This document shows, in pieces, positions 26,170 to 62,853 of a DNA stretch of 64,000 nucleotides. The DNA lies in IMG/VR virus record IMGVR_UViG_3300017917_000095, positions 20,898-84,897 of that record. One strand, given 5' to 3'. The notes beneath the pieces are model-generated. The model worked only from the letters and a program-made list of their open reading frames with translations, searched no databases and was not told where the DNA came from. Positions within the stretch are counted from its first letter, which is position 1, and each line of letters opens with the position of its first letter. Position numbers and translations under genes: made by a program. This DNA comes from a virus.

Positions 26170-26475
26170 ATGGATACAAAAACTTTAATAAGCGACGCCA
26201 AAGCCCGTTTTAGCCACAATGCTGCAAAAGCATACTTGAAAGAAAAGTATGAAGCACGATTAATTGTGGCTGAGCAAGGTGGTCTTTGGAGAGCTAATAC
26301 TAACACAATCAGTTTCTTAAACAGCATTCAAACCGATACAGTCGTGCTGATCGATACGTTTGAAAATCCGGTTGAAGTTAACCGTAGTGACTTGCTAGCC
26401 AAATTAACAGAAACGTATGACACTGTTATGCGTGAATGGCTCAACGATTGGGCAGAACTAGAGAAGAAGCGATGA
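26170..26475 (+). CDS. Hypothetical protein, 101 aa
   Basis: AGGAG SD; ATGA overlap with the next gene. Confidence 0.7.
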   Translation: MDTKTLISDAKARFSHNAAKAYLKEKYEARLIVAEQGGLWRANTNTISFLNSIQTDTVVLIDTFENPVEVNRSDLLAKLTETYDTVMREWLNDWAELEKKR

Positions 26476-27278
26476 GCCGAGGTGCATTACTCTTTGCATT
26501 CAACTCCCCGAAGTACAATTACTATGAAATGGCAGAGTTTGCTGCCAAGCGTATTAATCACTTCTTGGGATTGCCTGTAACGATTGTTACAGATGAAAAG
26601 AGCTTACCTGAAAATCCAACATACAAGTTCGACAATACCATTGTCGTAGAGCCTGATAAGAACAACATCAGAGACCATGTAGTTTGGATCAATAAGGGCC
26701 GCTATCAAGCTTATGCTCTAAGTCCGTATGACGAAACACTAGTGTTGGATACTGACTATGTTGTTAACAGTGATAAACTGTTAGCAACCTTCGACATGGC
26801 TGAGGATTTCTGCTGCCATGATAATACTAACTTCTTGATGTACCCTAAAGCACCTCAGGAAGTATTGAGTGCGTATAGCTTTAAGACATTGTGGGCTACC
26901 GTAATCATGTTTAAAAAGACAAACAGAGCAAGGCAAATCTTTGAATGTCTAGAAATGGTACAGAAGAATTATGACCACTATGCTAATATCCATAGTTTTA
27001 TTGCTGGTGTATATCGCAATGACTACGCCCTGACGCTAGCACTTAGAATTGCTAACGGCCACATCAACTACAAAGACGATATCATCCCGTGGAATCTAGT
27101 ACACGTGGGTAAGAATACCTCTGTATACAAGAACAACACTGACGAATTCGATACTGAATACACAGTGATGTATGATAATTGGCAACGTGGCAAGATTCGT
27201 AAAGAGTTTATGACAATCAAAGACATGGACTTTCACGTAATGAACAAAGACAATTTCATGGAGTTGATGAATGGATAA
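26472..27278 (+). CDS. GT-A fold (GT8-like) glycosyltransferase-like protein
   Basis: SPYDETLVLDTD DxD motif, WATVIMFKK, YRNDYA; start moved to ATG 26472 because of the ATGA overlap. Confidence 0.6.
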   Translation: MSRGALLFAFNSPKYNYYEMAEFAAKRINHFLGLPVTIVTDEKSLPENPTYKFDNTIVVEPDKNNIRDHVVWINKGRYQAYALSPYDETLVLDTDYVVNSDKLLATFDMAEDFCCHDNTNFLMYPKAPQEVLSAYSFKTLWATVIMFKKTNRARQIFECLEMVQKNYDHYANIHSFIAGVYRNDYALTLALRIANGHINYKDDIIPWNLVHVGKNTSVYKNNTDEFDTEYTVMYDNWQRGKIRKEFMTIKDMDFHVMNKDNFMELMNG

Positions 27279-28074
27279 GGGTTTTGTAATCATTTCCCAA
27301 GATGGGGGACATGCTGATACATATCAGAAATGTTCACATGCATTGGCTAAGAGCATCAAACGCTTTATGCCAGATGCCAAAGTGTCTATCATCACAGATA
27401 ACAAGGTCACTAACCCTGAGTTGTATGACAAGATCATTCCGTTACCCTACGGCGATCAAAGCCCTAAGAGTTTCTGGAAATTGAACAATGATTGGCAAGT
27501 CTATGAAGCTAGCCCCTACGAATATACTATCAAGCTAGAAGCTGACATTTATCTTCCACGTTCTATTGAACACTGGTGGGACGCATTGAAGCATCGTGAC
27601 TTGGTAATCGCTACAACTATACGTGACTTCAAGCAAGAAATTAGCCCTTCACGTGTGTATCGTAGACTCATTGACGAGAACTATCTACCTGATACATACA
27701 ATGCTATCACATACTTTAAGAAGTCTGAGACAGCGGAAGAGTTCTATAAGCTTGTGCGTCACATCTTTGAGAACTGGGCTGAGTTCAGAGCTATATTGAA
27801 GTGTAGCCCATATGAAGAAGCAACGACTGATTGGGTATATGCGTTAGCTACACACATTATGGGTGTAGAGAAATGCACATTGCCAGAGTTCACTGAAATG
27901 AGCATGATTCACATGAAACGATTGATTAACAATCTACCTACTGAGGATTGGACAGATGCATTAGTGTATGAGGTACTCCCTCACACATTAAGAATCAACT
28001 CTTGCCCACAGCTTTATCCGTTTCACTATCATATCAAGTCGTTTTCAAATAAAATACTAGAAGCCTATGTCTGA
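27271..28074 (+). CDS. GT-A fold (GT8-like) glycosyltransferase-like protein, paralog of the previous gene
   Basis: SPYEYTIKLEADI (ExD), YNAITYFKKS, TTDWVYA and HMK align with the upstream paralog. Confidence 0.6.
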   Translation: MDKGFVIISQDGGHADTYQKCSHALAKSIKRFMPDAKVSIITDNKVTNPELYDKIIPLPYGDQSPKSFWKLNNDWQVYEASPYEYTIKLEADIYLPRSIEHWWDALKHRDLVIATTIRDFKQEISPSRVYRRLIDENYLPDTYNAITYFKKSETAEEFYKLVRHIFENWAEFRAILKCSPYEEATTDWVYALATHIMGVEKCTLPEFTEMSMIHMKRLINNLPTEDWTDALVYEVLPHTLRINSCPQLYPFHYHIKSFSNKILEAYV

Positions 28075-28423
28075 TACAATACAACAAGAAGATGAAGTAA
28101 TCATATATTGGGAAGCACCGAAGATCGTGCCTCCCGAGTTCCGTTTGTACTATGAAGAAGAAACCGGTAAGGTTATCTGCTATACATGCGAGAAGCCCGA
28201 AGGCAAATATCTAGTCATCGATGCAGTAACCTTTGCTCAGGCTCGTCCTGATCTTAGAGTTATTGACGGAAAGATTTCTACAGCAAGCAATCATGCGATT
28301 GTTTCTAAGCTGATGCCAAACGCTACACGTGGGCAACTATGTGAAGCTGAGGACATTAGTGTTGTTGCAACAGACGGCCCAGACACAATAAGATGGAAAC
28401 TAAACACATATGAGCTTAAATGA
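28067..28423 (+). CDS. Hypothetical protein, 118 aa
   Basis: ORF overlapping both neighbours, same codon style. Confidence 0.65.
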   Translation: MSDTIQQEDEVIIYWEAPKIVPPEFRLYYEEETGKVICYTCEKPEGKYLVIDAVTFAQARPDLRVIDGKISTASNHAIVSKLMPNATRGQLCEAEDISVVATDGPDTIRWKLNTYELK

Positions 28424-29363
28424 AATTGTCGATGTTGCAGACCTTGATTGCATCTATCTCAGTTACGATGAACCCCAGAAAGAAGAATTCTGGTTAAAGA
28501 TCAAGAACATGGTGCCTTGGGCAAAGCGTGTTGATGGGGTCAAGGGTAGTGATGCTGCACACAAAGCAGCAGGGGAAGCATCAGACACAGAACGTTTCAT
28601 TCTTATTGACGGGGACAACATGCCCGATGAATCGTTCTTCAACATGCAACTAGACTTTACTGGTAAGCCCGCTAACTATCAATTAGCGCAGTTTCGTTGG
28701 AAAGCAGTCAATGCTATCAACGGTCTACGATATGGTAACGGTGGCATGAGTTCTTGGACAAAGACTTATGTTGCTAATATGAAAACCCATGAAGCACAAA
28801 CAGACGGCGACAGTTCACGTATTGCTGACTTCTGCTTAGACAGTAAAGATAATCTATACTGGGCTATGTACGATTGCTATTCAACTACATATCCAAACAT
28901 GACTCCTTTCCAAGCATGGCGTGCAGGATTCCGTGAAGGTGTCAAGATGGTTCTAGACAAGGGTGAGAAGCCCGATGCTAACGAGTTCAAAGAACGTGTA
29001 GCAAGTCGCAATCTAAACAACTTGACTATCTGGCAGAACGTAGGAGCTGACGTTGAGAACGGCATCTGGGCTATCTACGGTGCTCGTCTTGGTACATATA
29101 TGACTATGCTTACTGAGTGGGACTGTCACAATGTTCAATGGTTCGATAACTATCCGGTACTTTGGGAAGAACACGAACTCAAAGATCCAGTTAAGCAATC
29201 AGAATTAATCGGTGAGGCTCTAAGCGATAAATTAGGTCTACCCATGTGTACACTGAGCCCAGAACAAAGTAAGTTCTTTAAGCGTCACTATCAATCTGAC
29301 TATCATAACAAGGGCCCATTGGTCACTGAGATGGAAGTTATCCGACAAATCGAAGGATGGTAA
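28410..29363 (+). CDS. Phage GT-A-like glycosyltransferase, 317 aa
   Basis: DCIYLSYDEP...RVDGVKGSDAAHKAA...FILIDGDN (DxD)...NGLRYGNGG...AWRAGFREGVKM; homologous by eye to the C-terminus of the 2313-aa protein. Confidence 0.6.
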   Translation: MSLNEIVDVADLDCIYLSYDEPQKEEFWLKIKNMVPWAKRVDGVKGSDAAHKAAGEASDTERFILIDGDNMPDESFFNMQLDFTGKPANYQLAQFRWKAVNAINGLRYGNGGMSSWTKTYVANMKTHEAQTDGDSSRIADFCLDSKDNLYWAMYDCYSTTYPNMTPFQAWRAGFREGVKMVLDKGEKPDANEFKERVASRNLNNLTIWQNVGADVENGIWAIYGARLGTYMTMLTEWDCHNVQWFDNYPVLWEEHELKDPVKQSELIGEALSDKLGLPMCTLSPEQSKFFKRHYQSDYHNKGPLVTEMEVIRQIEGW

Positions 29364-30769
29364 TGTCAGAAAGCCACGAACAAAAACGAATCAAAGATAT
29401 CAAGATCAGAGTCGAAAACGAAGCTGGTCCAACGTTCTGCCTTGCTAAATGGCATCACGTTACTATGTACTTGCAAAGCGGTGAGACACACAGTTGTTAT
29501 CACCCACAGCCACATAAGATTCCATTAGAAGAACTCTATGACAATCCTAGCGCATTGCACAATACACAGCAGAAGAAAGAAGAACGCAAGCTAATGCTAG
29601 ACGGTGGCAAGCCCACAGGCTGTCAGTATTGCTGGAACATTGAAGCTATGGGTCCTGACTATATCAGTGACCGTCACATTCGTAACGCTAGTATCTTCAC
29701 AGAAGAACGTTATGAACAGACAGCTAAAGGCCCGTGGAATCAGAACATTAACCCTGAGTATATTGAAATCAACTTCGGTAACGAATGCAATTTCAAGTGC
29801 GGTTATTGTCATCCAAAGTACAGCACAAGCTTCTACAAAGAGATTGAGCAGAACGGTCCTGTCACAACTGTAAAGAATCATCGTTGCGACATTGACTGGA
29901 TGCGTTTATATCAGCGTGAAGATGATAACCCATACGTAGATGCATTCTGGGAATGGTGGCCAGAGATGCGTAAGACATTGAACATCTTACGTGTTACAGG
30001 TGGCGAACCCACGTTGCATAGAAGTACATGGACATTGCTAGAGAAGATCGACCAAGATCCAATGCCCTGGTTAGAACTAAACATCAATAGCAATCTAGGA
30101 ACAAAGCCTATTCTTATTGAACGTTTAGCTGAGAAAGTCAAAAAGCTTACTGACGAGGGTAAGATCAAGAGTTTCAAGCTATTTACTAGCTTAGACACAT
30201 GGGGCCCACGTGCTGAGTATATTCGTACAGGCCTAGACTTAGAACTATGGGAACAGAACTTCCATACATACCTAAAGGGTACAGATAGCCCAATCACGTT
30301 TATGATTACGTTCAATATCTTCTCCGTAACTACGTTCAAAAGCTTCCTAGAGAAGTTCATTGAATGGCGTAAGATTTACGGATGGTATGACGATCCTGTA
30401 AACCCACAGCATCGTGTGCGTTTTGACACACCTTATCTACGTGACCCTATTCAGTACGATATGAACATTCTTCCCAAAGAAGAATTCATGCCCTATATGT
30501 ATGAAGCACTAGCATACATGAAGGAAAACACTGACGACAAGCGCAGTGATGCCTTCAGCAGTATTGAATATGAGAAGTTCAAGCGTGTAGTTGATTACAT
30601 GGCTGAAACAAACTACCCGGAAGAGAAACTAATCGAAGGTCGCAGAGACTTCTACAATTGGTTCAATGAATTAGACGAGCGCCGCGACACAGACATGCTA
30701 AGTGTGTTCCCTGAGTACCTAAGCTTCTACCGTTTGTGTCAAGAAGCTAATCAACTCAACCCACTATGA
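29363..30769 (+). CDS. Radical SAM protein with N-terminal twitch/SPASM-like Cys cluster
   Basis: CNFKCGYC motif, TGGEP, N-terminal FCLAKW...SCYH...GCQYCW; start ATG 29363 (TAATG overlap) preferred over 29357. Confidence 0.85.
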   Translation: MSESHEQKRIKDIKIRVENEAGPTFCLAKWHHVTMYLQSGETHSCYHPQPHKIPLEELYDNPSALHNTQQKKEERKLMLDGGKPTGCQYCWNIEAMGPDYISDRHIRNASIFTEERYEQTAKGPWNQNINPEYIEINFGNECNFKCGYCHPKYSTSFYKEIEQNGPVTTVKNHRCDIDWMRLYQREDDNPYVDAFWEWWPEMRKTLNILRVTGGEPTLHRSTWTLLEKIDQDPMPWLELNINSNLGTKPILIERLAEKVKKLTDEGKIKSFKLFTSLDTWGPRAEYIRTGLDLELWEQNFHTYLKGTDSPITFMITFNIFSVTTFKSFLEKFIEWRKIYGWYDDPVNPQHRVRFDTPYLRDPIQYDMNILPKEEFMPYMYEALAYMKENTDDKRSDAFSSIEYEKFKRVVDYMAETNYPEEKLIEGRRDFYNWFNELDERRDTDMLSVFPEYLSFYRLCQEANQLNPL

Positions 30770-31998
30770 ACTCAGACAAGGAGCATAACTTAACAAAAAA
30801 CAAATCGTTCTGTATGCTTCCATGGGTTCATTTGCATATCACCCCTACGGGGCTAACTGCTCCGTGCTGTATAGCAACAACAGAGTCCGATCCTGAAATT
30901 GATAATATCAATGGAAAGACTATTCAATCGGCAGTAAACTCTGATAAGATGAATACTATTCGAAAGAATATGTTAAAAGGTGTATTGAGTAAAGAATGCA
31001 CAACTTGTCACGTGCATGAACAACAGAATGTTCATAGTACAAGGCAAGTTATGAATAAAGACCTATCAGCTTATTATGATTCAACCGTACCAAATACTAA
31101 TAGTGACGGCTCATTAGACGACTTTAAAATGCATTATTTCGATATCCGATTCAGTAATATTTGCAATTTCAAATGTCGCACATGCGGTCCGGACTACAGT
31201 AGTCAATGGGGAATAGAAAAGAATAAGCCAAAAGTCATACATATTGACAATGGTAAGGGTAAAATACTAGAAGAAGTAATTGCACAAGTACCCAATATTA
31301 AAATAGCGTACTTTGCGGGAGGGGAACCCTTGATTACCGAAGAGCATTATGTTATACTAGAAGAAATGATACGTACAGGTGCCGCCAAAGACATTCAATT
31401 AAAGTATAACACAAACGCCAGCAATCTCAAGTATAAAGACAAGGATTTACTGTCACTCTGGAAACATTTTGATAAGGGTGTGATTGTCGATGCTAGTATA
31501 GATCATTATGGTACTAGAGCCGAATATATTCGTCACGGGACTAACTGGGCTACAGTTGAAGAAAACATTAAACTCTTACGTACATTGCCTCATGTCTCAC
31601 TGAGAATGAACACAGTATTGAGTGTTTTCAATGTATTGACTATCGGTGACTTCTATGAGTATCTAATATCTAACGACCTGTACAATAACAAGGATATGGG
31701 ATATCTAGTGTATAACATGATAAGCCCTGCTTACTTAGCATGTCATATACTTCCCCCTGAGTATAAGACTATTAGTAGAGATAGCATTATGCGAGCCATA
31801 TCATTGTTGGTAACGAACAAGTTTAATATGTCAAGAATAGTGCAACTGAGACATGCCTATACATGGTCAAAGACTTATGACACGTGGGATACGCATAAGG
31901 ATGAATTTAAGAGTGAAATCAACAGACTTGATGCACTACGTAATGAAGATTTTAGAAAAACGTTTCCTGAATTAGCAGGATTATTGGATTTAGAATGA
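30766..31998 (+). CDS. Radical SAM protein with N-terminal twitch domain, 410 aa
   Basis: CNFKCRTC, FAGGEPL, N-terminal FCMLPW...PCC...ECTTC. Confidence 0.85.
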   Translation: MNSDKEHNLTKNKSFCMLPWVHLHITPTGLTAPCCIATTESDPEIDNINGKTIQSAVNSDKMNTIRKNMLKGVLSKECTTCHVHEQQNVHSTRQVMNKDLSAYYDSTVPNTNSDGSLDDFKMHYFDIRFSNICNFKCRTCGPDYSSQWGIEKNKPKVIHIDNGKGKILEEVIAQVPNIKIAYFAGGEPLITEEHYVILEEMIRTGAAKDIQLKYNTNASNLKYKDKDLLSLWKHFDKGVIVDASIDHYGTRAEYIRHGTNWATVEENIKLLRTLPHVSLRMNTVLSVFNVLTIGDFYEYLISNDLYNNKDMGYLVYNMISPAYLACHILPPEYKTISRDSIMRAISLLVTNKFNMSRIVQLRHAYTWSKTYDTWDTHKDEFKSEINRLDALRNEDFRKTFPELAGLLDLE

Positions 31999-33224
31999 AC
32001 AAAGATTATCTATTAAACGAAAGCAAGACGTTCTGCATGTTCCCGTGGGTTCACTTGAATGTAACGCCCAAAGGGGATATCTATCCTTGCTGTAGTAATG
32101 ACTACACAAAGCCCTATGGAAACACTAAGGAAATCTCACTTAAGGACGCATTCAACGGCCCTAAGATGAAAGAACTTAGATTGGACATGCTAAACGAGCG
32201 CAAGAATGAACTATGCAAGTTCTGTTATCAGCATGAAGAAGCAGGGCCACATAGCTTCCGTAACTATAGCAAAGAGCATTTCGGCAAGTACTTTGATGAA
32301 GTCGTACCCACTACACAAGAAGACGGAACCGTAGAAGAATTTAAGATGCGTTATTTCGATATTCGCTTTAGCAATATCTGTAACTTTAAATGCCGTACAT
32401 GTGGGTCAGAATTCTCTAGTCAGTGGGGACTAGAAATGAACAAGAATTACGACAAGAATCACCCAATTGTTATTCACGTAGATGACGGACAGGGCAAAGT
32501 ATTAGAAGAAGTACTTGAGCAAGTAGAACACATTGACCTAGCTTATTTCGCTGGTGGCGAGCCATTAATCACGGAAGAACATTACGTGATGCTAGAAGAA
32601 ATGATTCGCAAAGGCCGCACAGACATTACGTTGCGCTATAATACTAACGCTAGTAATATCAAGTACAAGAACCACGATGTACTAGACTTGTGGAAGCATT
32701 TCAAGAAGGTCGAACTATCTTGCAGCATAGATCATTACGGTGAACGTGCTGAACTATTACGTGCCGGAACTGATTGGGGCAAAGTCGAATCTAACTTACT
32801 GACATTCCGTGACTTAGATTATGTAAGCTTCCAAATGAACACTGTGTTCAGTATATTCAACTATTTGACTATCGGAGAGTTCTATCAGTACTTGAAAGAC
32901 AAGAATATTGTTAGAAAAGAAGACTGGTATCATAGCTTATATCTAGCGGTGCATCCATTATATTACAGTGCTAAATCATTGCCCAAAGAATTAAAGATTG
33001 AGGCAGCAGAAAAAGCACTTAAATGGGCTGAAGCAAATAATAATGACCACACTTGCATCCCGCGTTTAGTAGTAGATGCAGTGAATTTTGCTAAAGACGG
33101 AGACAGTTGGAGCGAAGTTCGCACACAGTTCTTGGGTCATACCAAATCATTAGATCGTATCAGAGATGAAAGTTTCTGGAAAACGTTCCCTGAATTAAAT
33201 AAATTATCTGAATTGTTGGAGTAA
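31995..33224 (+). CDS. Radical SAM protein with N-terminal twitch domain, 409 aa
   Basis: CNFKCRTC, FAGGEPL, N-terminal FCMFPW...PCC...CKFC. Confidence 0.85.
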   Translation: MNKDYLLNESKTFCMFPWVHLNVTPKGDIYPCCSNDYTKPYGNTKEISLKDAFNGPKMKELRLDMLNERKNELCKFCYQHEEAGPHSFRNYSKEHFGKYFDEVVPTTQEDGTVEEFKMRYFDIRFSNICNFKCRTCGSEFSSQWGLEMNKNYDKNHPIVIHVDDGQGKVLEEVLEQVEHIDLAYFAGGEPLITEEHYVMLEEMIRKGRTDITLRYNTNASNIKYKNHDVLDLWKHFKKVELSCSIDHYGERAELLRAGTDWGKVESNLLTFRDLDYVSFQMNTVFSIFNYLTIGEFYQYLKDKNIVRKEDWYHSLYLAVHPLYYSAKSLPKELKIEAAEKALKWAEANNNDHTCIPRLVVDAVNFAKDGDSWSEVRTQFLGHTKSLDRIRDESFWKTFPELNKLSELLE

Positions 33225-33226
33225 TC

Positions 33227-34498
33227 ATGGATAAAGTTACAGTAGAGAGCCTGGTAAAGCACGGCAAGCATTTTTGCGTGTTGCCCTGGGTTCATTTTCA
33301 CAGTTGGCCAGATGGCCGTGTTATGCCTTGTTGTATTGCAGACAGCAATATGCCCGTAGCCGATTTAAAGAACGGCGAGTCTATCATCAATATGATGAAC
33401 AGTGAGGACTATAAAAAGCTACGTAAGGCAATGATGAATGACGAGCCCGTTGAAGCTTGTAAGCGTTGCTATGACCTAGAACTAATGGGTACATGGACAA
33501 TGCGTCAAAGTCACAACAAGCGCAAAGGTCTAGAATATGTAGACTATATTGCAGATAGTACATTAGATGATGGAAGCTTAATTGACTTTGAAATGAAGTA
33601 CATGGACTTGCGTTTTAGCAATATATGTAACATGAAATGTCGCAGTTGCGGTCCAGGCTGCTCAAGCTTATGGGCACAAGAATTTGTTGACCGTGTAGGT
33701 GTAGACACATACAAGAAGTATTTCCACACGACCAAAGTAGTTGTCAACGAAGCAGAAGAAATGGACTTTATGAACAAATTAAAGCCATATCTCAAAGACG
33801 TTACAGAAGTATATTTCGCTGGTGGCGAGATTGTTATTACTCCTGAGCACTATGAATGCTTAGACTACTGGATCGAAAATGGAATCAACGAAACAATTGA
33901 GTTGACTTATACAACAAACTTCAGCACATTGAAGGGCTATAAGGACAATGACTTGATTGAATATTGGAAGAAATTCCCTAATCTGAAGATTTGGGCGTCA
34001 CTCGATGCACACGGTGACGTTGCTGAATGTATCAGAAAGGGTACAGATTGGGATCGTATTGTTAAAAATATCAAGTTAGTTAAAGAGCAAGTTCCTCATG
34101 CTGAATTTCAGATTACTCCAACCATCAGCATTTGGAACGTGTTCACATTCCCTGACTTCTTTGACTATATGGTTAACGAAGGGTTTATTGATACTAAGAG
34201 TAGCCCACGCTTCAACTTAGCAACTAATCCATGGTATGCTAACATTATGATCCTACCCGTTAGTGTCAAGCGCAGACTAGCAGAATTGTACCGTGTCTAT
34301 CAGAATAGATACAAAGACAACATCGATATCTATAACGGATTTAAGATGATTATCTACAATTTAACAGTAGGCGACGAGAACAAAGAGGGTATTTTAGAGT
34401 TCATTAAATTCAACGAAGAATTAGATGTACATCGTAAAGAGAAATTAGAGGAAGTAATTCCAGAACTTAAAGAGGTGTTTGATTGGGCAAGAAACTAA
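33227..34498 (+). CDS. Radical SAM protein with N-terminal twitch domain, 423 aa
   Basis: CNMKCRSC, FAGGE, N-terminal FCVLPW...PCC...CKRC. Confidence 0.85.
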   Translation: MDKVTVESLVKHGKHFCVLPWVHFHSWPDGRVMPCCIADSNMPVADLKNGESIINMMNSEDYKKLRKAMMNDEPVEACKRCYDLELMGTWTMRQSHNKRKGLEYVDYIADSTLDDGSLIDFEMKYMDLRFSNICNMKCRSCGPGCSSLWAQEFVDRVGVDTYKKYFHTTKVVVNEAEEMDFMNKLKPYLKDVTEVYFAGGEIVITPEHYECLDYWIENGINETIELTYTTNFSTLKGYKDNDLIEYWKKFPNLKIWASLDAHGDVAECIRKGTDWDRIVKNIKLVKEQVPHAEFQITPTISIWNVFTFPDFFDYMVNEGFIDTKSSPRFNLATNPWYANIMILPVSVKRRLAELYRVYQNRYKDNIDIYNGFKMIIYNLTVGDENKEGILEFIKFNEELDVHRKEKLEEVIPELKEVFDWARN

Positions 34499-51496: not shown

Positions 51497-51498
51497 GA

Positions 51499-53408: not shown

Positions 53409-53413
53409 GTCGA

Positions 53414-54892: not shown

Positions 54893-57800
54893 ATGTTAAG
54901 AGATGTTTTTTATTACGGAAAGAAACCGAATGTTCACCCTAAGGAGAGACCTGCAAAGAATCTAGCTGATGCTAGAAAGCAAGCTACAACTGAACATTTT
55001 TGGATCATCAACGAATTCTGTGATTATACCAATTTCGACTGGGACTTTGATTTCGAGTTCCTGCCTGACCAAGATGTATGGGCAGAAGATCATAACAACG
55101 TTTGGCCTAGCGTACATCAAAAAGACAGTGGTACTTGGTTGTGCCCTAAAACAAAGAGCGAAGTTATCGTATACCGTGCCGATGTTGATTCGTTGAAGCG
55201 TAAGAACATCATCACTGACAATTGGAAGATGCTAGATCACATTGATACTAGTAAATGGGATTTCAGTTGGCACCCTGATCCAACTGACCCTCCCTTCATT
55301 TACAAGTGGGGTTCGAAGTATGCACCTGTTGAACTAAAGACATGTTTAGAATATCATGTTGAAGGTGCCACTCTTGTCAAATACATGAACACCACTGTGG
55401 ACTTGTTACCCAATTGGGATTGCATTGTTGAGGTACAAAAAGTAGATCACAATCATTGGGATATGAGTTGGAGACCAGATCCTCTCGACCCTCCCTTCAT
55501 CTATGTATGGGGCAACAAGTACATCGATGGTCGTTTACGTGCAACATTAGAGTATCATGTTCCGGAAGCAACAGAAAAGAAATATATGCCTGAGTTAGTG
55601 CCTGTTCAACCTGAATGGGATCGTTGGGTATTCTTGCATGAGATAGATAAAACATCATTTGACTTTACTTGGAGACCGGATCCACGTGAGCCTGATTTCA
55701 TATATGTGTTTGGCAACGATCAATACGATGGCACGGTGATGCCTACGATTGAATATCGTATGCCTGGCGCCACTGTGACGAAGTACAACCTTGACAAGAA
55801 AGCCAAACTAGCCCCTCATCCTGAGAAGTTTCAGCACTTAGAAAAGGCTGATGGAATTGATTACAGTTGGGTGCCTGATCCTACATCACCACCTTACATT
55901 TATGCTTGGGGTAATCAATGGAACAAACCAGAAGATAAGGTTTCTATTCAGTATGTAGTAGAAGGCGCAACTGAATACAAGTACATGGAACAACGTGCTA
56001 AACGTAAACCATGCATGGATAACTGGGAAGTACCAGACAATATCGACACAACAGGATTTGATTTCTCATGGGAACCTAGTCCTGCTGATCCTGCATACAT
56101 CTATGAGTTCGGCACACAGTGGCAAAAGACAGGGGGACCTCGTTACGTAGTACCCGGCGCAACTGAAGTCAAGTATGTAGAATTTCAAAAAGCAAAAGCA
56201 TTAGTCAATCCTGTTGCTAAACAAAAGAACTGGTCTGTTCCTAACAATTTAGATATCACTGGATTCGATTTTAGTTGGCATCCGGATGCAACTAGCCCTC
56301 CCTACATCTATCACTTTGCTACACAATGGGCACTAACCGGCGGCCCCATCTATACATGTGATGGCGCAACAGAAGTCAAGTACTTAGAAGAGCCAAGTGC
56401 AATTGCATTACCCGATAAGACAAATTGGAAGTATGACCCTAAGCTGATTGACGAGAATTCATTTGACTTCTCATGGCACCCATACGTAGAAGATCAACCC
56501 TATGTGTATGTCTTTGGTACACAACATCAAAAAACAGGCGGCCCTGTTTATTACACTCCTGGTGCACTATCAACTAGCCCGGTGAAGTATATCGACACCC
56601 GTATCTTACGTGCAACACGATTGCCCAATCGCAAGAACTTTGCGGTGTTGAACAATTATCAAATTGATAACTTTGATTGGTCATGGCATCCAGACGAGAC
56701 AGAAGAATCGTATGTCTATGTGTTTGGTAACAATCAATACTCGGCTGAAATTATGCCTACGATTGAGTATGCAATGCCCGGCGCAAAGCAAATCAAATAC
56801 ATCAACACAGTAAAAGCCACTCTAGGTGCCGATAGAACTAACTGGGTTATCAACCAGCCTATCAATGAATCTACTTTTGATTTTAGCTGGAAGCCTAATC
56901 CCAAAGACCCTCCATACATCTATCGTTGGGGTAACAAATACATCAGCAACAAATATAAGTCTACTATAGATTACGTAGTTCCTGAAGCTACTGAAATCAA
57001 GTACATGGATGATAATGTTGAAGTGCTACCTCAAATGGATCGTTGGGAGATACCATCAGACGTAAGCACAGATGGGTTCGATTTTAGTTGGAGACCTGAC
57101 CCATTAGAGCCCGACTTGATTTGGCAGTTCGGTACTCAATGGCAGAAGACAGGTGGTCCTCGCTATGTAGTACCTGGCGCAACTGAAATCAAATACGTAG
57201 ATATCAAAGTAACTGCACTACCTCAAAAAGAAAAGTTCACTACGTTACACCCAATTGAAAACTTTGACTGGTCATGGCATCCAGATGACACAGAAGAACC
57301 TTTCATCTATGTGTTTGGCAATAATCAGTACCCAGCAGAGATCATGCCTACTGTTGAATACAGAATGCCCGGAGCAACTCAAGTAAAGTATATCAATGAT
57401 GTTAGTGCCAAGTTAGCAGTTGACATGACTAACTGGTCGATCCCTGATGACCTTGATACCTCTGGCTTTGACTTTAGTTGGAAACCTAACCCTAAAGACC
57501 CTGCTTACAATTATGAGTTCGGCACTCAATGGCAGAAGACAGGCGGCCCTCGATATGTAGTAGAAGGATCAACTGAAACAAAGTATGTTGACATGATGAA
57601 AGCAAAGAAACTCCCTAATAAGAGAAACTTTGCAGTCCTTAATAACTACCAGATCAAAGACTTTGATTGGTCATGGCATCCAGATTCAACAGATGAGCCC
57701 TTCATTTACCAATTCGGTAACAATCAGTATCCTGCTGAGATTATGCCTACTATTGAGTACATGGTTGAGGGTGCAATACAGGTCAAATACGTTCATGAAG

Positions 57801-60800
57801 CTATCGCTACGCTCGATGTAGACATGACAAATTGGGAAGTACCTGAGTCAGTCGATACCACTGGCTTTGATTTCTCATGGAAGCCTAATCCCAAAGATCC
57901 GGCTTACAATTATGAGTTCGGCACTCAATGGCAGAAGACAGGTGGGCCTCGTTACCTTGTAACAGATGCAACAGAAACAAAGTATGTTTCTACACAGAAA
58001 GTAAAAGCATTGCCAGTTAAAACTAACTGGACTATCCCTCCTCACATTGATGTTGCTGGATTCGATTTTAGTTGGCATCCAGATGCAACTAGCCCTCCAT
58101 ACGTCTATCACTTTGCTACGCAGTGGGCATTGAGCGGTGGACCTATCTATCGTGTAGATGGTGCAACAGAGGTCAAGTACATGGATGAACTATGTGCCAC
58201 TGCGTTACCTAATAAAGAAAACTGGGAAGTACCGTCAGATGTCAATGTGTCTGCGTTTGACTTCTCATGGCATCCATACGTTGAAGATCAGCCATATATC
58301 TATCAGTTCGGTACACAACATCAAAAGACAGGTGGACCACGGTACATCACGCCGGGTTCAGTCGCTAGCAGTCCGGTCAAGTATATTGACACACGTATTC
58401 TTAAGGCAGAGAAGTTGCCTAATCGCAAGAACTTCAACATTCTTAATAACTACAAGATCAAAGATTTTGATTGGTCATGGCACCCTGATACAACAGATGA
58501 ACCTTTCATCTATGTGTTCGGTAATAATCAGTATCCTGCTGAGATTATGCCTACCCTAGAGTATGCAATGCCGAATGCCAAAGAGATTAAATATGTTCAC
58601 TCAGTTGTTGCAACATTGTCAAGTGACCGCAACAACTGGGAGATTCCAGACAACATTGATGTAACTGAATTTGATTTCAGTTGGAAGCCTAATCCAAAAG
58701 ACCCACCGTACATCTATCAGTTTGGCACACAGCATCAAAAGACAGGTGGCCCTCGTTATGTTGTGCCTGATGCTACTGAGGTTAAGTACGTTGAAGGTAG
58801 CAAAGCTAAAGCATTGCCTACTACTGCGAACTGGATATTACCCAAAGACTTAGACATTGTAGATTTTGACTACTCATGGCATCCTGATAGTACAGAAGCT
58901 GCGTATGAGTACATCTTCCCCACACAATGGCAGTTGACAGGAGGCCCGCGCTACATGGTGCCAGGCTCACAAGAACTCAAGTTCATGGATGGCCCTGTTG
59001 CTACTGTTGGACCAACAACAAAGAATTGGGAAGTCCCTGCTGATATTGTTCTAAAAGATTTTGACTTTAGCTGGCATCCACACCCAGATGATCCTACGTT
59101 TATCTATGAGTTTGCAACGCAGTGGCATGATCGTGGTGGTCCACGCTATATTGCCCCGGGTGCAAACAAAGATACGCCTGTCAAATATATCGACGGTCGT
59201 ATCATTAAAGCGACACTAGGCCCTAACAAGAACAATTGGGTCGCGGCGCAGAAGATTGACGAAGATAAATTTGACTACAGCTGGGTACCTCACCCTAATG
59301 ACCCGCCTTACATATATCGTTGGGGTAACAAGTTTATTAGCGGAGTGTTCAAGCCTACAATAGAGTACCAAGCACCCGGTGCAACTGAATACAAGTACAT
59401 GGATGACAACGTTGAGGTGCTACCTCAATGGGATCGATGGGAGATTCCTGAAGGTATTGATTCAACTGGATTCGATTTTAGTTGGAGACCTGATCCATTA
59501 GAGCCTGACTTGATTTGGCAGTTCGGTACTCAATGGCAGAAGACAGGTGGCCCTCGCTATGTAGTACCTGGTGCAACTGACATTAAGTATATCGATACGA
59601 TGAAGGTCAGAAGGCTCCCTTCTAAGAAGAATTGGTTCAACCCTCAGCAATCAGATGTAACGTTGTTTGATTATAGCTGGCATCCAGACGATACTAATCC
59701 ACCGTACATTTATCAGTTCGGTACATTAGTAGATATGAACGACGGTCCTAGATACATTACTCCTGACTCTACCGGCAACGTAGTATTTTTACAACGGGTA
59801 GAAGTTGATGAAGCTGTTGAGGTTGATGAAGCTCCTTCAGAGGAAATCATTGAAAAGTATTTCATCGAAACAACGTTAGATGATTTAGTTAAGCAACATC
59901 CTAATCAGGTGTTCTGGGCAATGAATAAGAACATTGACTACAGCAAGTTTGATTTCGAATGGAGACCAGAATCATTGAGAGATATGGAATACGTACAAGT
60001 ATTCGGTTCTCCTGACTCAGCATTGACTCATACTTACTTTGTTAACTCTAAGTCTTATGCCGCAGGCAACAAGGACTTCAAGTTCATTGAGAACGCAAAC
60101 CTAGATGAATCATACTTGTCCAGTTTGTTCATTAAGTCTGACATGTTCTTTGTCGATAAAGGTAACAAAGAATCACAAGCACGTTTCGATGAACTAAAGA
60201 ATTTATTCGGTAACAGAATTCAAAAGACTCGTTACTTGAACAGCTGGGTTGATACAATCAATCGCTGTATCAACCGTAGTACTACTGACCTGTGCTGGAT
60301 ACTAAACAGTGAGTTGGATTATAGTAACTTTAACTTTGAATACTATCCTAACCCTTGGCAGATGAAGATGGTTCACGTGTTTGGTACACAGTGGAGTCAT
60401 TGGGGCACAACATTCATGGTCAATCGTGAAACGTTTGCAGCCGATACCAAGTACATCAAGATCATTGAGCACTTGAGTAACTTGAACTTTGTTAAGGATC
60501 GTATTGCAAATGCAACTAACAGAATCTACGATGTAATCTACATCGATCACGGTAACTTGGCTACAGTACCTGGAACTAGTGTCAAGTATGAAGAAAGCTA
60601 TCTAAAGACTTTCAAGAACATGCTAGCTATCTTGCCCGAGAAGAAAGAACATTACGTATGGGTATGCAGCACAGTATGTGATTACACTGGATTTGACTTC
60701 ACATACATTTGCGATCCGTTTGCACGTGACCAGTTGCATGTATTCCCTAGTGATAAGCAAAAGTTCGGAGACACCTTCTTAGTCAATGTCAATAAACTAC

Positions 60801-61834
60801 GTGAATTGATTGATAAGATGACCGTGTTACAAGAGTATGAAAAGATCAACTACAACCAGACTCAACGTGTTAAGCGTTTGCAACCTCCTACAATTGTCAC
60901 TGAGTTTGATACACATGTGGCAAGCGTGATGCAAGACTTTGACTTCCCGTATGCTGTATTTGTTACTGAAGATAACAAGGATATCGTTGCAGTTGAAGAA
61001 GAACCAATGAACTTGTGGGATAAAGAATCTAAGAACATTCTTATTACAAGTACAGGTGGCACACGCATCATTGTTCCCAAAGAAGCAAAGCAGTATGTTG
61101 AGACACAGTTATATGATTACCCGTACATCAAGACTGCATCACGCCTAGCTAAGTCTAAACCACTAGACATTGTTTACTTGAGTAACGGTGAGTCATGTGC
61201 AGAAGAAAACTATGAACACTTGTTGAAGGTGACAAAGGGCTTGCCTAATAGAATCGTTCGTGTCGATGGAATCAACGGTCGTGTTGAAGCATATCATGCT
61301 GCCGCAGAAGCAAGTGAAACACCTTGGATGTTCACTGTGTTTGCTAAGTTGAAATTGAATGCCAAGTTTGACTTTAACTGGCAACCAGATAGACTACAAA
61401 TTCCTAAACACTATATGTTCTTAGCCAAGAACCCCGTTAACGGTTTGATCTATGGCCACCAAGGTATGATTGCATACAATAAGCAAATGACATTAGACAA
61501 TCCCGGATATGGTCTAGACTTCACATTAGATAGTCCACATGAAACGATTGAATTGCTATCAGGTATCACAACGTATAACACTGACGAATGGGCTACATGG
61601 CGCACAGCGTTCCGTGAAGTCATCAAGCTAAAGAAAGAGAACTCAGAGATTAGCTTGAAGCGTTTGGATGCTTGGTTAAACAAAGCAGAAGGTAACTTTG
61701 CTGAGTATTCACTAGATGGTGCCCGTCATGGTGTCGAGTATTTTGAAGAAGTAGAAGGCAAGACAGACAAGTTGCGTTTGAGTTACGAATGGTCTTGGCT
61801 GCGTCAACGATTCGATGAAAAGTATAAGAAATGA
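54893..61834 (+). CDS. 2313-aa repeat protein: ~23 Trp/Pro-rich repeats plus degenerate C-terminal GT-A-like modules
   Basis: Repeat consensus NWxxPxxxDxxxFDFSWxPxxxxPxYIYxFGxQWxxxGGPxYxxxGATExKY; C-terminal LDIVYLSNGE...RVDGINGRVEAYHAAA...NPVNGLIYGHQG...WRTAFREVIKL resembles 28410..29363. Confidence 0.75.
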   Translation: MLRDVFYYGKKPNVHPKERPAKNLADARKQATTEHFWIINEFCDYTNFDWDFDFEFLPDQDVWAEDHNNVWPSVHQKDSGTWLCPKTKSEVIVYRADVDSLKRKNIITDNWKMLDHIDTSKWDFSWHPDPTDPPFIYKWGSKYAPVELKTCLEYHVEGATLVKYMNTTVDLLPNWDCIVEVQKVDHNHWDMSWRPDPLDPPFIYVWGNKYIDGRLRATLEYHVPEATEKKYMPELVPVQPEWDRWVFLHEIDKTSFDFTWRPDPREPDFIYVFGNDQYDGTVMPTIEYRMPGATVTKYNLDKKAKLAPHPEKFQHLEKADGIDYSWVPDPTSPPYIYAWGNQWNKPEDKVSIQYVVEGATEYKYMEQRAKRKPCMDNWEVPDNIDTTGFDFSWEPSPADPAYIYEFGTQWQKTGGPRYVVPGATEVKYVEFQKAKALVNPVAKQKNWSVPNNLDITGFDFSWHPDATSPPYIYHFATQWALTGGPIYTCDGATEVKYLEEPSAIALPDKTNWKYDPKLIDENSFDFSWHPYVEDQPYVYVFGTQHQKTGGPVYYTPGALSTSPVKYIDTRILRATRLPNRKNFAVLNNYQIDNFDWSWHPDETEESYVYVFGNNQYSAEIMPTIEYAMPGAKQIKYINTVKATLGADRTNWVINQPINESTFDFSWKPNPKDPPYIYRWGNKYISNKYKSTIDYVVPEATEIKYMDDNVEVLPQMDRWEIPSDVSTDGFDFSWRPDPLEPDLIWQFGTQWQKTGGPRYVVPGATEIKYVDIKVTALPQKEKFTTLHPIENFDWSWHPDDTEEPFIYVFGNNQYPAEIMPTVEYRMPGATQVKYINDVSAKLAVDMTNWSIPDDLDTSGFDFSWKPNPKDPAYNYEFGTQWQKTGGPRYVVEGSTETKYVDMMKAKKLPNKRNFAVLNNYQIKDFDWSWHPDSTDEPFIYQFGNNQYPAEIMPTIEYMVEGAIQVKYVHEAIATLDVDMTNWEVPESVDTTGFDFSWKPNPKDPAYNYEFGTQWQKTGGPRYLVTDATETKYVSTQKVKALPVKTNWTIPPHIDVAGFDFSWHPDATSPPYVYHFATQWALSGGPIYRVDGATEVKYMDELCATALPNKENWEVPSDVNVSAFDFSWHPYVEDQPYIYQFGTQHQKTGGPRYITPGSVASSPVKYIDTRILKAEKLPNRKNFNILNNYKIKDFDWSWHPDTTDEPFIYVFGNNQYPAEIMPTLEYAMPNAKEIKYVHSVVATLSSDRNNWEIPDNIDVTEFDFSWKPNPKDPPYIYQFGTQHQKTGGPRYVVPDATEVKYVEGSKAKALPTTANWILPKDLDIVDFDYSWHPDSTEAAYEYIFPTQWQLTGGPRYMVPGSQELKFMDGPVATVGPTTKNWEVPADIVLKDFDFSWHPHPDDPTFIYEFATQWHDRGGPRYIAPGANKDTPVKYIDGRIIKATLGPNKNNWVAAQKIDEDKFDYSWVPHPNDPPYIYRWGNKFISGVFKPTIEYQAPGATEYKYMDDNVEVLPQWDRWEIPEGIDSTGFDFSWRPDPLEPDLIWQFGTQWQKTGGPRYVVPGATDIKYIDTMKVRRLPSKKNWFNPQQSDVTLFDYSWHPDDTNPPYIYQFGTLVDMNDGPRYITPDSTGNVVFLQRVEVDEAVEVDEAPSEEIIEKYFIETTLDDLVKQHPNQVFWAMNKNIDYSKFDFEWRPESLRDMEYVQVFGSPDSALTHTYFVNSKSYAAGNKDFKFIENANLDESYLSSLFIKSDMFFVDKGNKESQARFDELKNLFGNRIQKTRYLNSWVDTINRCINRSTTDLCWILNSELDYSNFNFEYYPNPWQMKMVHVFGTQWSHWGTTFMVNRETFAADTKYIKIIEHLSNLNFVKDRIANATNRIYDVIYIDHGNLATVPGTSVKYEESYLKTFKNMLAILPEKKEHYVWVCSTVCDYTGFDFTYICDPFARDQLHVFPSDKQKFGDTFLVNVNKLRELIDKMTVLQEYEKINYNQTQRVKRLQPPTIVTEFDTHVASVMQDFDFPYAVFVTEDNKDIVAVEEEPMNLWDKESKNILITSTGGTRIIVPKEAKQYVETQLYDYPYIKTASRLAKSKPLDIVYLSNGESCAEENYEHLLKVTKGLPNRIVRVDGINGRVEAYHAAAEASETPWMFTVFAKLKLNAKFDFNWQPDRLQIPKHYMFLAKNPVNGLIYGHQGMIAYNKQMTLDNPGYGLDFTLDSPHETIELLSGITTYNTDEWATWRTAFREVIKLKKENSEISLKRLDAWLNKAEGNFAEYSLDGARHGVEYFEEVEGKTDKLRLSYEWSWLRQRFDEKYKK
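55220..59790 (+). repeat. Intragenic tandem array of ~23 units of ~200 nt (~65-70 aa)
   Basis: 23 counted (F/W/I)D(F/W/Y/M)(S/T)WxP cores; near-identical DNA blocks, e.g. 57077-57186 vs 59471-59580. Confidence 0.85.
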
Positions 61835-62853
61835 AATACGCCTGCACTAATCAATGGGACGGGCTACAGATGCCCGCCTTCAGGGATAAAGTATTGAATG
61901 GTAACTATGATAAGGTGGTTTTGTTCGGTCAGAACGAGTGGGCTTGGTATCATCAGAACCCTGAATTCTATGAGATACTTGAATACTGTAAACAACGAAA
62001 CATACCGGTTGAAATAATAACCGGTGCATGTGAAGAATTGTACCCAGCGAAGATGGACTATGTAAAGATTCATTGGTGGGACACCTATTGGATAGGAAAG
62101 ACATATCAAGATTTGATCGGTAGTATGGCACACACCGGTAAACCCCCTAGAGCAATTGATCCATACGAAACTACAAACTTTCAGCACCATTATATTTGCA
62201 TGAACAATAGACCTCACAAGCATCGATGTTTGCTCATTGACTTATTAGCAAAGAATGACTTAATGCAATACGGGGCATTGTCTATACGAGGTGAAGATCC
62301 TATACTTTACAAGTGGAGATACTTTAATTACACTCCGATGTATTTGTCAGAAGGTGTGGAGTACGATCAATACAAAATGCCAGATCAATACTATAATTCA
62401 TTCGCACAGTTGATTAGCGAAAGTTCTAGTGATGTGTTGATGATATCTGAAAAAACGGCAACACCGTTGATACTAGGCAAACCATTCTTAGTAGCAAGTC
62501 AAGTAAATTTTCATAAAACATTGAGTAGGATGGGTTTTGAGTTGTACGATGAAATCTTTGACTACGGGTTTGATAGTGAACCTGACGAAGAAAAGCGATA
62601 TGAAATGCTACTAAAAAACTTTGTTAGATTGTCTAAGATTCCACTGAAAAACTTAAATCGTTTACAGAAACAGTTGGCTCCCAAGATCATGCGTAACAGG
62701 GAACGTGCTAGGGAAATTTCGTATGATTTGAATTTGTATCCAAAGATTGCATTGGAAGCGATAGATCACTATCACAAAACGGGTGAGGAGTTGGATCACC
62801 GAATGATCCAAGTGCATTTGAATCTGGAAAGATACAGGAAAGTCAAGTTTTGA
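61831..62853 (+). CDS. Putative GT10-like domain protein, 340 aa
   Basis: WWDTYW, YICMNNRPHKHR, LISES...ISEKTATP...KPF...GFELYDEIFDYGFD. Confidence 0.5.
   Translation: MKYACTNQWDGLQMPAFRDKVLNGNYDKVVLFGQNEWAWYHQNPEFYEILEYCKQRNIPVEIITGACEELYPAKMDYVKIHWWDTYWIGKTYQDLIGSMAHTGKPPRAIDPYETTNFQHHYICMNNRPHKHRCLLIDLLAKNDLMQYGALSIRGEDPILYKWRYFNYTPMYLSEGVEYDQYKMPDQYYNSFAQLISESSSDVLMISEKTATPLILGKPFLVASQVNFHKTLSRMGFELYDEIFDYGFDSEPDEEKRYEMLLKNFVRLSKIPLKNLNRLQKQLAPKIMRNRERAREISYDLNLYPKIALEAIDHYHKTGEELDHRMIQVHLNLERYRKVKF

Follow-up and report, generated by a model that had tools for sequence, protein, structure and literature searches.

A probable phage-encoded pathway for a tailored glycan, linked to the fibre genes of an uncultured jumbo myovirus

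Variable gene islands linked to fibre genes are described in pelagi- and cyanomyophages as the "host recognition cluster" (HRC), which carries glycosyltransferases (GTs), a UDP-glucose 6-dehydrogenase and radical S-adenosylmethionine (SAM) cassettes (Zaragoza-Solas et al. 2020, PMC7029224). In mycobacteriophages, according to the summary of Freeman et al. 2023 given in PMC12619734, decoration of virion proteins by phage GTs (O-glycosylation) is experimentally shown. Synthesis of every known DNA glycan begins either with a hydroxymethylase or hydroxylase of the ThyA type or with the pairing of a methyltransferase and TET (bioRxiv 10.1101/2023.12.21.572611; PMC13326640). Here we analyse a 64,000-nucleotide (nt) stretch of viral DNA (the window), which covers bases 20898-84897 of the 84.9-kb IMG/VR contig IMGVR_UViG_3300017917_000095 and reaches the contig end. 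The gene cluster at positions 26170-62853 of the window very probably encodes a tailored-glycan pathway, to judge from its protein families, and is a large, unusually rich version of a known, functionally uncharacterised type of phage island. An earlier sequence-only reading of this DNA held that this is not a characterised phage pathway; that stands as to function, but the gene content of fibre-linked islands is already published (PMC7029224).

The cluster comprises 25 open reading frames (ORFs, named here by their start positions), all on the + strand, as had been noted (about 25 consecutive same-strand genes behind the fibres). Overlaps are found at 19 of the 24 junctions; the other five are spaced by 0-7 nt (three junctions), 49 nt and 127 nt. 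The late-type TAAATA motif that had been reported at the cluster start is indeed present at 26148, within a promoter-like element CTAAATAC (26143..26154, +) lying 15 nt 5' of the first cluster gene, and a perfect TATAAATAC is found at 53280-53288 (+), 5' of the carbamoyltransferase gene 53405. Of the 18 + strand copies of TAAATA in the window, 9 fall within its 1107 intergenic bases, at sites 5' of the baseplate wedge gene, of 23289, 23941, 26170 and 53405, and of small ORFs after the cluster. It is the placement of the copies that carries the signal, not their number; the exact 8-mer ATAAATAC is not enriched by count (5 observed versus 4.1 expected), and a sigma-70 scan did not rise above shuffled sequence. 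The sole strong terminator-like hairpin (23188-23208) lies 3' of the giant gene that encodes a protein of 6529 amino acids (aa), and none is found between the fibres and the cluster. Since junctions overlap, TAAATA is shared with the structural genes and the hairpin comes only after the giant gene, the cluster is a true operon with a promoter-like signal in common with the structural genes. By likeness to the T4 late promoter TATAAATA, TAAATA(C) may be taken as a mark of late transcription. Pfam and NCBIfam give no match for 14 of the 25 cluster ORFs, the names of cluster members are not informative, and no membrane segment exceeds the hydrophobicity threshold in any cluster ORF.

About 11 GT-like domains of two folds can be counted, in agreement with the roughly ten proposed earlier, and no GT family of Pfam matches any cluster ORF. 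They are seven copies of a GT-B domain of ~300 aa, here called domain X, together with 28410, the C-terminus of 54893, and the two leads 26436 and 27271. In an all-against-all comparison, domain X is found in 35462 (35462..36784, +; copy 1, behind an N-terminal ~135 aa of unknown kind), in 37755 (37755..38837, +; copy 2), twice in 41642 (41642..43702, +; copies 3 and 4 in tandem, an X-X architecture common in the database), in the fusion proteins 44512 and 51457 (copies 5 and 6), and as the stand-alone copy 7 in 61831 (61831..62853, +). The AlphaFold2 (AF2) model of this last copy, built with 41 homologues, has a GT-B fold (predicted local distance difference test score (pLDDT) 94.6), and its top Foldseek matches are all GT-B, with weak E-values of ~3e-3. 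An exhaustive VIA search with the model gave Z scores of 11.4 for T4 BGT (root-mean-square deviation (rmsd) 4.0, 254 residues aligned), 9.7 for T4 AGT, 9.7 for FUT9, 9.6 for FUT11 and 8.3 for H. pylori FucT. Thus domain X is, from its modelled structure, a GT-B fold protein of predicted glycosyltransferase activity. Residues N125, R132, D137, E197 and K208 are invariant, the last within an SEKT motif (E207-K208), and R132 with E207-K208 resembles the donor-binding Arg and Glu-Lys motif of GT10. No Pfam match of Glyco_transf_10 to domain X is seen at E 0.01, and a domain X profile search against the PDB returned noise only.

Relatives of domain X occur on 256 IMG/VR contigs. A tblastn search of 50,697 isolate phage records found no match to it, and its BFVD matches are limited to proteins of uncultured Caudovirales and a single Mimivirus protein. 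In its longer relatives, domain X is paired with itself (X-X) or fused to an NDP-sugar (nucleoside diphosphate sugar) dehydrogenase or to a short-chain dehydrogenase/reductase (SDR) of the GDP-mannose-dehydratase type, and to nothing else. Because these are its fusion partners elsewhere, domain X appears, by the Rosetta-stone argument, to be tied to sugar-nucleotide chemistry.

ORF 28410 (28410..29363, +) is, on its AF2 model (pLDDT 91.4), a GT-A fold glycosyltransferase of the DxD type, its activity being predicted, with a helical C-terminal domain behind the GT-A domain. The two aspartates of its D67-x-D69 motif are invariant in 46 sequences. The best Foldseek match is PBCV-1 A64R, a glycosylating enzyme of the viral capsid (E 4.3e-4), and the best VIA match B4GALNT1 (Z 9.4, rmsd 3.1, 143 aligned), and the family is large, with 1724 representatives at 50% identity. 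Upstream, within 26436..28074 (+), are two paralogous GT-A-like candidates of the GT8/Nucleotid_trans kind (26436-27278 and 27271-28074; phrog_1903). Their assignment is a feature-based Atlas lead (PF03407/PF01501 at 0.96, with PF03407 on 30-51% of cluster members) accompanied by a conserved DxD position, DTD in 26436 and EAD in 27271; neither has a Pfam match. PDB searches with single sequences of 28410 and 27271 and with a 28410 profile yielded noise only. A further protein with a GT-A-like domain, 54893 (54893..61834, +), is 2313 aa long and consists of 24-25 tandem ~67-aa FDFSWxP units, larger degenerate modules and a C-terminal GT-A domain that is homologous to 28410 and lacks the DxD motif. 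A hidden Markov model of the 28410 family matches this C-terminal domain and not the repeats; a by-eye match to FDFxWxP at residue 2159 would be consistent with the repeats having been derived from the GT-A domain.

Enzymes that could supply and tailor sugars are interspersed with these GTs. ORF 36781 (36781..37758, +) is an extended SDR resembling NDP-sugar epimerase/reductases of the GDP-fucose-synthase kind (PF01370, 156 bits; NF047922, 123 bits, under its cut-off). A triple fusion, 44512 (44512..47631, +), joins an NDP-sugar 6-dehydrogenase to domain X copy 5 and a class I methyltransferase that is HemK-like and has NPPH at residue 947. ORF 50522 (50522..51496, +) has no Pfam match, but its homologue profile aligns over the full length (positions 3-322) with the inosamine-phosphate amidinotransferase StrB1 (PDB 1bwd, E 3.9e-104), and AGAT, SxtG and HsvA follow at ~1e-60 in the same kind of profile search. 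It retains the C-terminal catalytic motif GGCFHC (GGCFHCVTLD) and is 61% identical to ORF309 of cyanophage S-SCSM2R. ORF 53405 (53405..54892, +) is an O-carbamoyltransferase of the NodU/CmcH type, with Carbam_trans_N (PF02543, 124 bits) and Carbam_trans_C (PF16861, 160 bits) both over cut-off and the NodU equivalog cut-off not reached. The dehydrogenase, the amidinotransferase, the carbamoyltransferase and the NPPH methyltransferase had all been named in the sequence-only reading, and Pfam and NCBIfam, profile search and motif now support them.

Three other proposed activities stand in part. The DegT-type sugar aminotransferase, dependent on pyridoxal phosphate (PLP), is recognisable in 49942 (49942..50544, +; PF01041, E 1e-17) and keeps its PLP-lysine motif (SFxxxK, SFQYRK), but it is half-length, its 200 aa spanning profile positions ~54-244 of 360. 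The short form is kept in 15 loci and is 57% identical to the 195-aa ORF305 of S-SCSM2R. Its conservation from jumbo phages to this cyanophage suggests a minimal or partnered PLP enzyme and not a pseudogene. The proposed 2-oxoglutarate (2OG) oxygenase is a cupin with an HxD...H motif, 2OG-oxygenase-like, at the N-terminus of 51457 (51457..53277, +), fused to domain X copy 6; its sole Pfam lead is Asp_Arg_Hydrox (Asp/Asn hydroxylase) at E 0.007, and it is 36% identical to S-SCSM2R ORF308. Of the two SGNH proteins, 38822 (38822..39721, +) has GCSWT, GxGN and HP blocks and 43686 (43686..44504, +) has GCSFT, GxGN and DxHP; the two families are related (hhalign probability 93%), but GDSL Pfam matches are weak (~1e-4) and occur in just 2-3 of 30 homologues, and a PDB profile search with 43686 returned noise only.

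The seven radical SAM enzymes that had been counted are all confirmed (29357, 30766, 31995, 33227, 34483, 39714 and 47681), each with CxxxCxxC and family matches. Four of them (29357, 30766, 31995 and 33227; 29357..34498, +) are tandem paralogs with an N-terminal twitch, scoring 313-373 bits against NF033640 (cut-off 170); Pfam places SPASM at residues 14-82 and Radical_SAM after it at ~125-290, and the cysteine pattern is conserved. ORF 34483 (34483..35475, +) has the canonical order, with a C-terminal cysteine cluster (Pfam, NCBIfam and the cysteine motif). The remaining two, 39714 (39714..41645, +) and 47681 (47681..49945, +), are B12-binding, with PF02310 and PF04055 both over cut-off and no equivalog cut-off reached. 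Their NCBIfam matches are KedN5-like and AprD4-like, and 39714 is of the KedN5-like C-methyltransferase type (NF033712, 256 bits, under cut-off).

In bacteria the N-twitch family is found in 264 stretches, many of them in Bacteriovoracaceae and often in arrays, once beside a B12 enzyme that is 63-64% identical to 47681. The latter arrangement is seen on contigs of Halobacteriovorax metagenome-assembled genomes (MAGs) (L119:5526-13500 and L134:10001-17954), where genes like 33227, 34483 and 29357 accompany the B12 enzyme. These matches hint at gene exchange with Bdellovibrionota, or at a host among them. The bacterial neighbourhoods of the family (in Halobacteriovorax, Reichenbachiella, Paenibacillus and Synechococcus) have no common theme and offer no functional hint. 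In one viral relative, G002 (L086:3227-20059 plus L024:1533-2837), 14 intact radical SAM ORFs stand in a row, 13 of them with the N-terminal twitch cysteine pattern. This array takes the place of most of the cluster body, between a gene like the 28410 GT-A and a trio of carbamoyltransferase, repeat protein and GT-B. As it has 14 copies, the array argues that the N-twitch enzymes may act on many distinct sites or substrates.

Gene order around the cluster is widely conserved. The relatives G001 and G003 and the more distant G004 share the order wedge, giant protein, 23289, fibres, 25171, 26170, 26436, 27271, 28067, 28410, cluster, and the order fibre, 26436, 27271, 28410, radical SAM is also seen in a different lineage, at seven loci in IMG/VR, and on several MAG-binned phage contigs. 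Genes like 25171 lie 5' of the cluster head in L062-L078, in Ralstonia phage RsoM2USA and in G001, G003 and G004, and the order carbamoyltransferase, giant repeat protein, GT-B is found in more than 25 loci. RsoM2USA, which is cultured, has a mini-version of the cluster (ORF347-358) at the same place, at 30-40% identity (PMC8504454). Its order is wedge ORF362, structural ORF361, SDR epimerase ORF358, fibre-like ORF355, a GT-A-like pair (ORF353/352, homologues of 26436/27271), a homologue of 28410 (41% identical), an N-twitch radical SAM gene (36% identical) and a second 28410-like gene. Contigs L103, L106, L107, L126, L127 and L162, from MAGs assigned to Rickettsiales, Legionellales, Verrucomicrobia, Betaproteobacteria and Haliscomenobacter, also carry the module of phage fibre, GT-A head and radical SAM genes; they probably come from phages and were wrongly binned with bacteria.

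The survey of synteny that had been called for therefore finds the linkage of fibres and cluster kept in close and distant relatives, RsoM2USA included, but G005 and S-SCSM2R place parts of the cluster apart from structural genes, an arrangement that the earlier reading had itself named as telling against it and that is thus seen in part. Because these two carry such parts elsewhere, the locus is read as a fibre-linked "head" (three GT-A genes, two of them leads, plus N-twitch radical SAM) and a more mobile "body". The neighbours of the G005 body are a dehydrogenase, an endonuclease, a kinase/cytidylyltransferase, a PurA/PurZ-like gene and a ferredoxin. The last two, an adenylosuccinate-synthetase homologue (phrog_1211) and the ferredoxin (L087:7307-8350 and L087:9757-10386), lie just 5' of the body; the ferredoxin could be a reductant of radical SAM clusters, and the PurZ-like gene might be a sign of 2-aminoadenine DNA.

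The contig is ~15% complete by CheckV, the GC content of the window is ~40%, and a megablast of 20 kb against the 50,697 phage records found no match. Close relatives reach 139-244 kb at 40-71% estimated completeness, which implies genomes of ~350 kb. The source is an uncultured jumbo myovirus of the Rak2/XacN1 type. The first ORF of the window (152..3520, +), which marks the structural operon, encodes a baseplate wedge subunit (phrog_10646, E 4e-260) that is ~34% identical to its counterparts in the jumbo phages GAP32 and Atu_ph07 and in those of the RsoM2USA type. It is followed by the 6529-aa structural protein (3531..23120, +), fibre or baseplate-associated and a candidate acceptor, with a serine plus threonine content (S+T) of 20%; this ORF ranks among those of the longest phage proteins. 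It is present in G001, G003 and G004 and is homologous to RsoM2USA ORF361, a virion protein confirmed by mass spectrometry (PMC8504454). The giant protein is 43-71% identical in G001 and G003, and internal repeats are visible as self-matches at residues ~300-450 and ~2600-2650 in the relatives. Next come a 206-aa virion-type protein (23289-23909, +; phrog_11259), a fibre whose C-terminus is a Peptidase_G2 intramolecular-chaperone domain by Pfam (23941-25161, +), and a fibre-like protein of 316 aa with 28% S+T (25171-26121, +). S+T makes up 16-28% of the upstream structural proteins (20-28% if only the giant protein and the two fibres are counted) and 8-14% of the cluster enzymes, and the fibres are nearly free of cysteine.

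Two small cluster proteins are of unknown function: 26170 (26170..26475, +; 101 aa), without a family match and kept at the cluster head, and 28067 (28067..28423, +; 118 aa), kept in relatives. Just 3' of the cluster, behind TAAATAC motifs, 62889-63239 encodes a ~37-aa hydrophobic peptide and a 75-aa predicted lipoprotein with an LVGC lipobox and a Gly-zipper segment, which may be spanin-like or exclusion-type envelope proteins. An HNH homing-endonuclease-like ORF (phrog_655) at 63623-64000 runs past the contig end. In G003, the region 3' of the cluster (L006:11894-12775 and L006:14498-20310) holds a Gram-negative porin, a MoxR-type AAA ATPase, a VWA/metallopeptidase protein, dihydrofolate reductase (DHFR) and a canonical thymidylate synthase.

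The enzyme families, folds and fusions, the operon structure, the common promoter-like motif and the conserved synteny are observed; in the scheme that follows we infer which donors are used, in what order the steps occur, what the radical SAM enzymes catalyse, when the genes are expressed and what the acceptor is. The block 26170-62853 would be a late-expressed, fully cytoplasmic glycan factory. Host NDP-sugars would be remodelled by the SDR epimerase/reductase, the NDP-sugar 6-dehydrogenase, the short DegT enzyme followed by the StrB1-type amidinotransferase (converting an amine to a guanidine) and the cupin. The chain would be started by the three GT-A enzymes of the head (26436, 27271 and 28410) and extended by the seven GT-B domains of the virus-specific family, several of which are fused to donor-making or tailoring domains. 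Its sugars would be decorated by the O-carbamoyltransferase, the NPPH methyltransferase and the two SGNH-type proteins, which may handle acyl groups, and also by the two B12 radical SAM enzymes of C-methyltransferase type and the five twitch radical SAM enzymes, with chemistry perhaps of the oxidation, epimerisation or deoxygenation type. The acceptor would be an upstream virion protein (the Ser/Thr-rich 23941 or 25171, or the 6529-aa protein), giving a glycan coat on the host-recognition apparatus.

A virion acceptor is favoured because the operon is fused to the fibre genes, head and fibres keep their synteny across hosts, the promoter-like motif is shared, and giant viruses offer a precedent. 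The Ser/Thr-rich composition of the upstream proteins and the lack of membrane segments in the cluster ORFs also speak for it. We hold the whole statement, tailored glycan and virion-protein acceptor together, tentatively, and the balance tips slightly against its being right in every part. Accordingly graded, the earlier proposal of a phage glycan decorating the adjoining fibres is upheld in its phage-encoded, probably late tailored-glycan pathway and in the conserved fibre linkage, with the fibre or baseplate proteins as candidate acceptor. A bolder version is doubtful: a guanidino-, carbamoyl- and C-methyl-bearing polymer at the virion surface, carried on the fibres or on the 2313-aa protein as scaffold, with the N-twitch family performing undescribed radical chemistry on NDP-sugars or on a protein-glycan conjugate, and with domain X and 28410 representing large virus-centred GT families absent from classifications.

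Several observations count against a glycan built for the virion. The acceptor is putative, and the late timing is predicted from the motif. The solved structures nearest to domain X are the T4 glucosyltransferases, which modify DNA. Soluble GTs would be equally able to use host lipid-linked intermediates, and the absence of membrane proteins is weak evidence. With 14 radical SAM ORFs, ~4 GTs and no sugar-nucleotide enzymes, G002 is a poor fit to sugar-by-sugar tailoring. In G005 the cluster body (radical SAM, domain X, dehydrogenase, amidinotransferase and carbamoyltransferase) adjoins nucleotide-metabolism genes, without the head GT-A genes or nearby fibres. Finally, the DegT-cupin-amidinotransferase trio of S-SCSM2R is found in a non-structural region, with other GTs (PMC12801897).

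These points lend themselves to other explanations, the best surviving of which, still an unlikely one, is that the host envelope is remodelled, with phage GTs acting on undecaprenyl-linked O-antigen or capsule intermediates and so causing superinfection exclusion or less re-adsorption to debris. The published islands beside fibre genes, in which the GTs are of the GT8 type and are joined by UDP-glucose dehydrogenase and cassettes of radical SAM genes, have been read as O-chain modification (PMC7029224), and 26436 and 27271 are GT8-like leads. The lipoprotein and small membrane peptide just downstream, and the porin of G003, fit as well, and O-antigen GTs are often peripheral, so that the absence of membrane segments is compatible with this role. 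However, Pfam, NCBIfam and hydrophobicity detect in the cluster neither the hallmarks of Wzx/Wzy- or ABC-dependent surface polysaccharide synthesis nor any initiating polyprenyl-phosphate transferase, flippase, polymerase, ligase, ABC exporter or Gtr-type membrane protein. Sharing an operon and a promoter-like motif with the structural genes would also be late for surface conversion, and the head module accompanies fibre genes in Ralstonia and in marine and freshwater hosts, which is hard to square with a single-host lipid intermediate.

The 14-copy array of G002 keeps a protein-directed role alive as a rival, improbable as we judge it: the twitch and B12 radical SAM enzymes, an amide-type methyltransferase and the cupin would modify residues of a fibre or of the 2313-aa protein by cross-linking, epimerisation or C- or N-methylation, in the manner of proteusins and other ribosomally synthesised and post-translationally modified peptides (RiPPs), and glycosylation would be only part of the maturation. 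The scarcity of GTs and sugar-nucleotide enzymes in G002 fits this role, as do the co-occurrence of radical SAM arrays with a giant aromatic-rich repeat protein, the HemK-like methyltransferase and the Asp/Asn beta-hydroxylase lead of the cupin. On the other side, no precursor-peptide-like ORF, RiPP recognition element (RRE) domain or leader peptidase was found in the cluster, where an unrecognisable precursor may escape detection; 26170 and 28067 are without RiPP-core-like repeats, and the fibres offer almost no cysteines. The N-twitch core is also nearer to the nucleotide-acting MoaA and viperin than to peptide maturases, and the bacterial contexts of the family are heterogeneous.

Hypermodification of DNA, offered earlier as an alternative, finds little support and is very improbable. 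It would have the GT-B enzymes glycosylate a hydroxylated base late in infection, with the other enzymes building or decorating a DNA-linked sugar (amino, guanidino, carbamoyl, methyl). The likeness of domain X to T4 BGT and AGT, its best structural matches, speaks for it, as does the setting of the G005 body; the NPPH motif is of the type seen in amino-methyltransferases, and known DNA glycan pathways are late, use GT-A and GT-B enzymes and are sometimes near structural genes (bioRxiv 10.1101/2023.12.21.572611; PMC13326640). Yet FUT9 and FUT11 score ~1.7 Z under T4 BGT and level with T4 AGT, domain X is never fused to DNA-binding modules among the relatives seen, and ~11 GT domains far exceed any known DNA glycan. 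The GT domains are acidic, most copies having an isoelectric point (pI) of 4.9-6.6 and a net charge of -1.5 to -16 and one copy a pI of 7.8, whereas T4 BGT is basic. The window has neither a thymidylate-synthase-type hydroxymethylase or hydroxylase nor a TET/JBP protein, and no Tet_JBP match was obtained in the relatives, in a search of incomplete contigs that had no positive control. The relatives, 40-71% complete, have a single ThyA homologue 8-16 kb past the cluster, which is regarded as canonical because it scores 353 bits and directly follows DHFR. It was considered as a ThyA-type hydroxymethylase near the cluster and rejected.

The least probable explanation is a free secondary metabolite, a soluble aminoglycoside-like pseudo-oligosaccharide with guanidino and carbamoyl groups aimed at the host or at competitors, for although the StrB1-type amidinotransferase, the NodU/TobZ-family carbamoyltransferase, the KedN5-like and AprD4-like matches of the B12 enzymes, the BtrN-like type of the twitch enzymes and the name "antibiotic synthesis genes" given to the homologous S-SCSM2R trio by its authors (PMC12801897) would suit it, Pfam and NCBIfam detect no cyclitol synthase, exporter or self-resistance gene in the cluster, neither ~11 GT domains nor a repeat protein of 2313 aa fits a small molecule, and the fibre-gene linkage is conserved.

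Were the favoured reading of fibre decoration true, large aquatic and soil phages would devote at least 10% of a genome of ~350 kb to a glycocalyx of their own on the host-recognition apparatus, and this would matter for host range, for adsorption and for how well proteases and defence lectins are resisted. The cluster holds three large families without an assigned reaction, namely the N-twitch radical SAM enzymes (widespread in Bdellovibrionota), domain X and the 28410 GT-A family. The presence of the core module in the cultured RsoM2USA makes the question directly testable.

Among known systems, S-SCSM2R ORF301-310 (PMC12801897) and the "LPS" (lipopolysaccharide) clusters of P-SSM2 and S-SCSM1 have the short DegT enzyme (57%), the cupin (36%) and the amidinotransferase (61%) in common with the present cluster, beside GTs and a radical SAM enzyme. 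S-SCSM2R differs in that its GTs are of the GT2/GT25 families, domain X and the N-twitch array are lacking, and the genes are not beside structural ones; cell-wall or antibiotic functions were ascribed to them by its authors. Aminoglycoside pathways (StrB1, TobZ/NodU, BtrN- and GenK/KedN5-type) share the amidinotransferase, O-carbamoyltransferase, twitch and B12 radical SAM and DegT families, but the present cluster is without a cyclitol core enzyme, exporter or resistance gene, has many more GTs and is placed in a phage structural operon. T4 AGT/BGT and the metavirome DNA-glycan clusters are alike in their compact phage GT-B enzymes and late action, and multi-sugar products exist (bioRxiv 10.1101/2023.12.21.572611; PMC13326640). 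Such clusters are defined by an adjoining ThyA-type hydroxymethylase or hydroxylase, or a methyltransferase plus TET, and neither arrangement is found alongside the cluster in the window or in the incomplete relatives.

Mycobacteriophage glycosylation, compared by its description in PMC12619734 only, involves 2-4 GTs acting on the capsid and tail tube of siphoviruses, and radical SAM enzymes and the chemistry of amidino and carbamoyl groups are absent from it. Giant viruses (PBCV-1 A64R and the Mimivirus fibril glycans) resemble the cluster in having soluble viral GTs and sugar-nucleotide enzymes, which make unusual methylated or aminated virion glycans without host secretory machinery; they differ in their eukaryotic hosts, proven acceptors and lack of radical SAM arrays, and the likeness is at fold level only (8-16% identity). 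The HRC is likewise a large island within the structural region beside the fibres, and both it and the present cluster are known from sequence alone. Its authors favoured host O-chain modification over virion decoration (PMC7029224). The HRC belongs to T4-like phages of ~150-250 kb, whereas the cluster described here is that of a Rak2/XacN1-type jumbo phage, and is one coupled 37-kb operon that adds a StrB1-type amidinotransferase, a carbamoyltransferase, B12 radical SAM enzymes, seven GT-B copies and the 2313-aa repeat protein.

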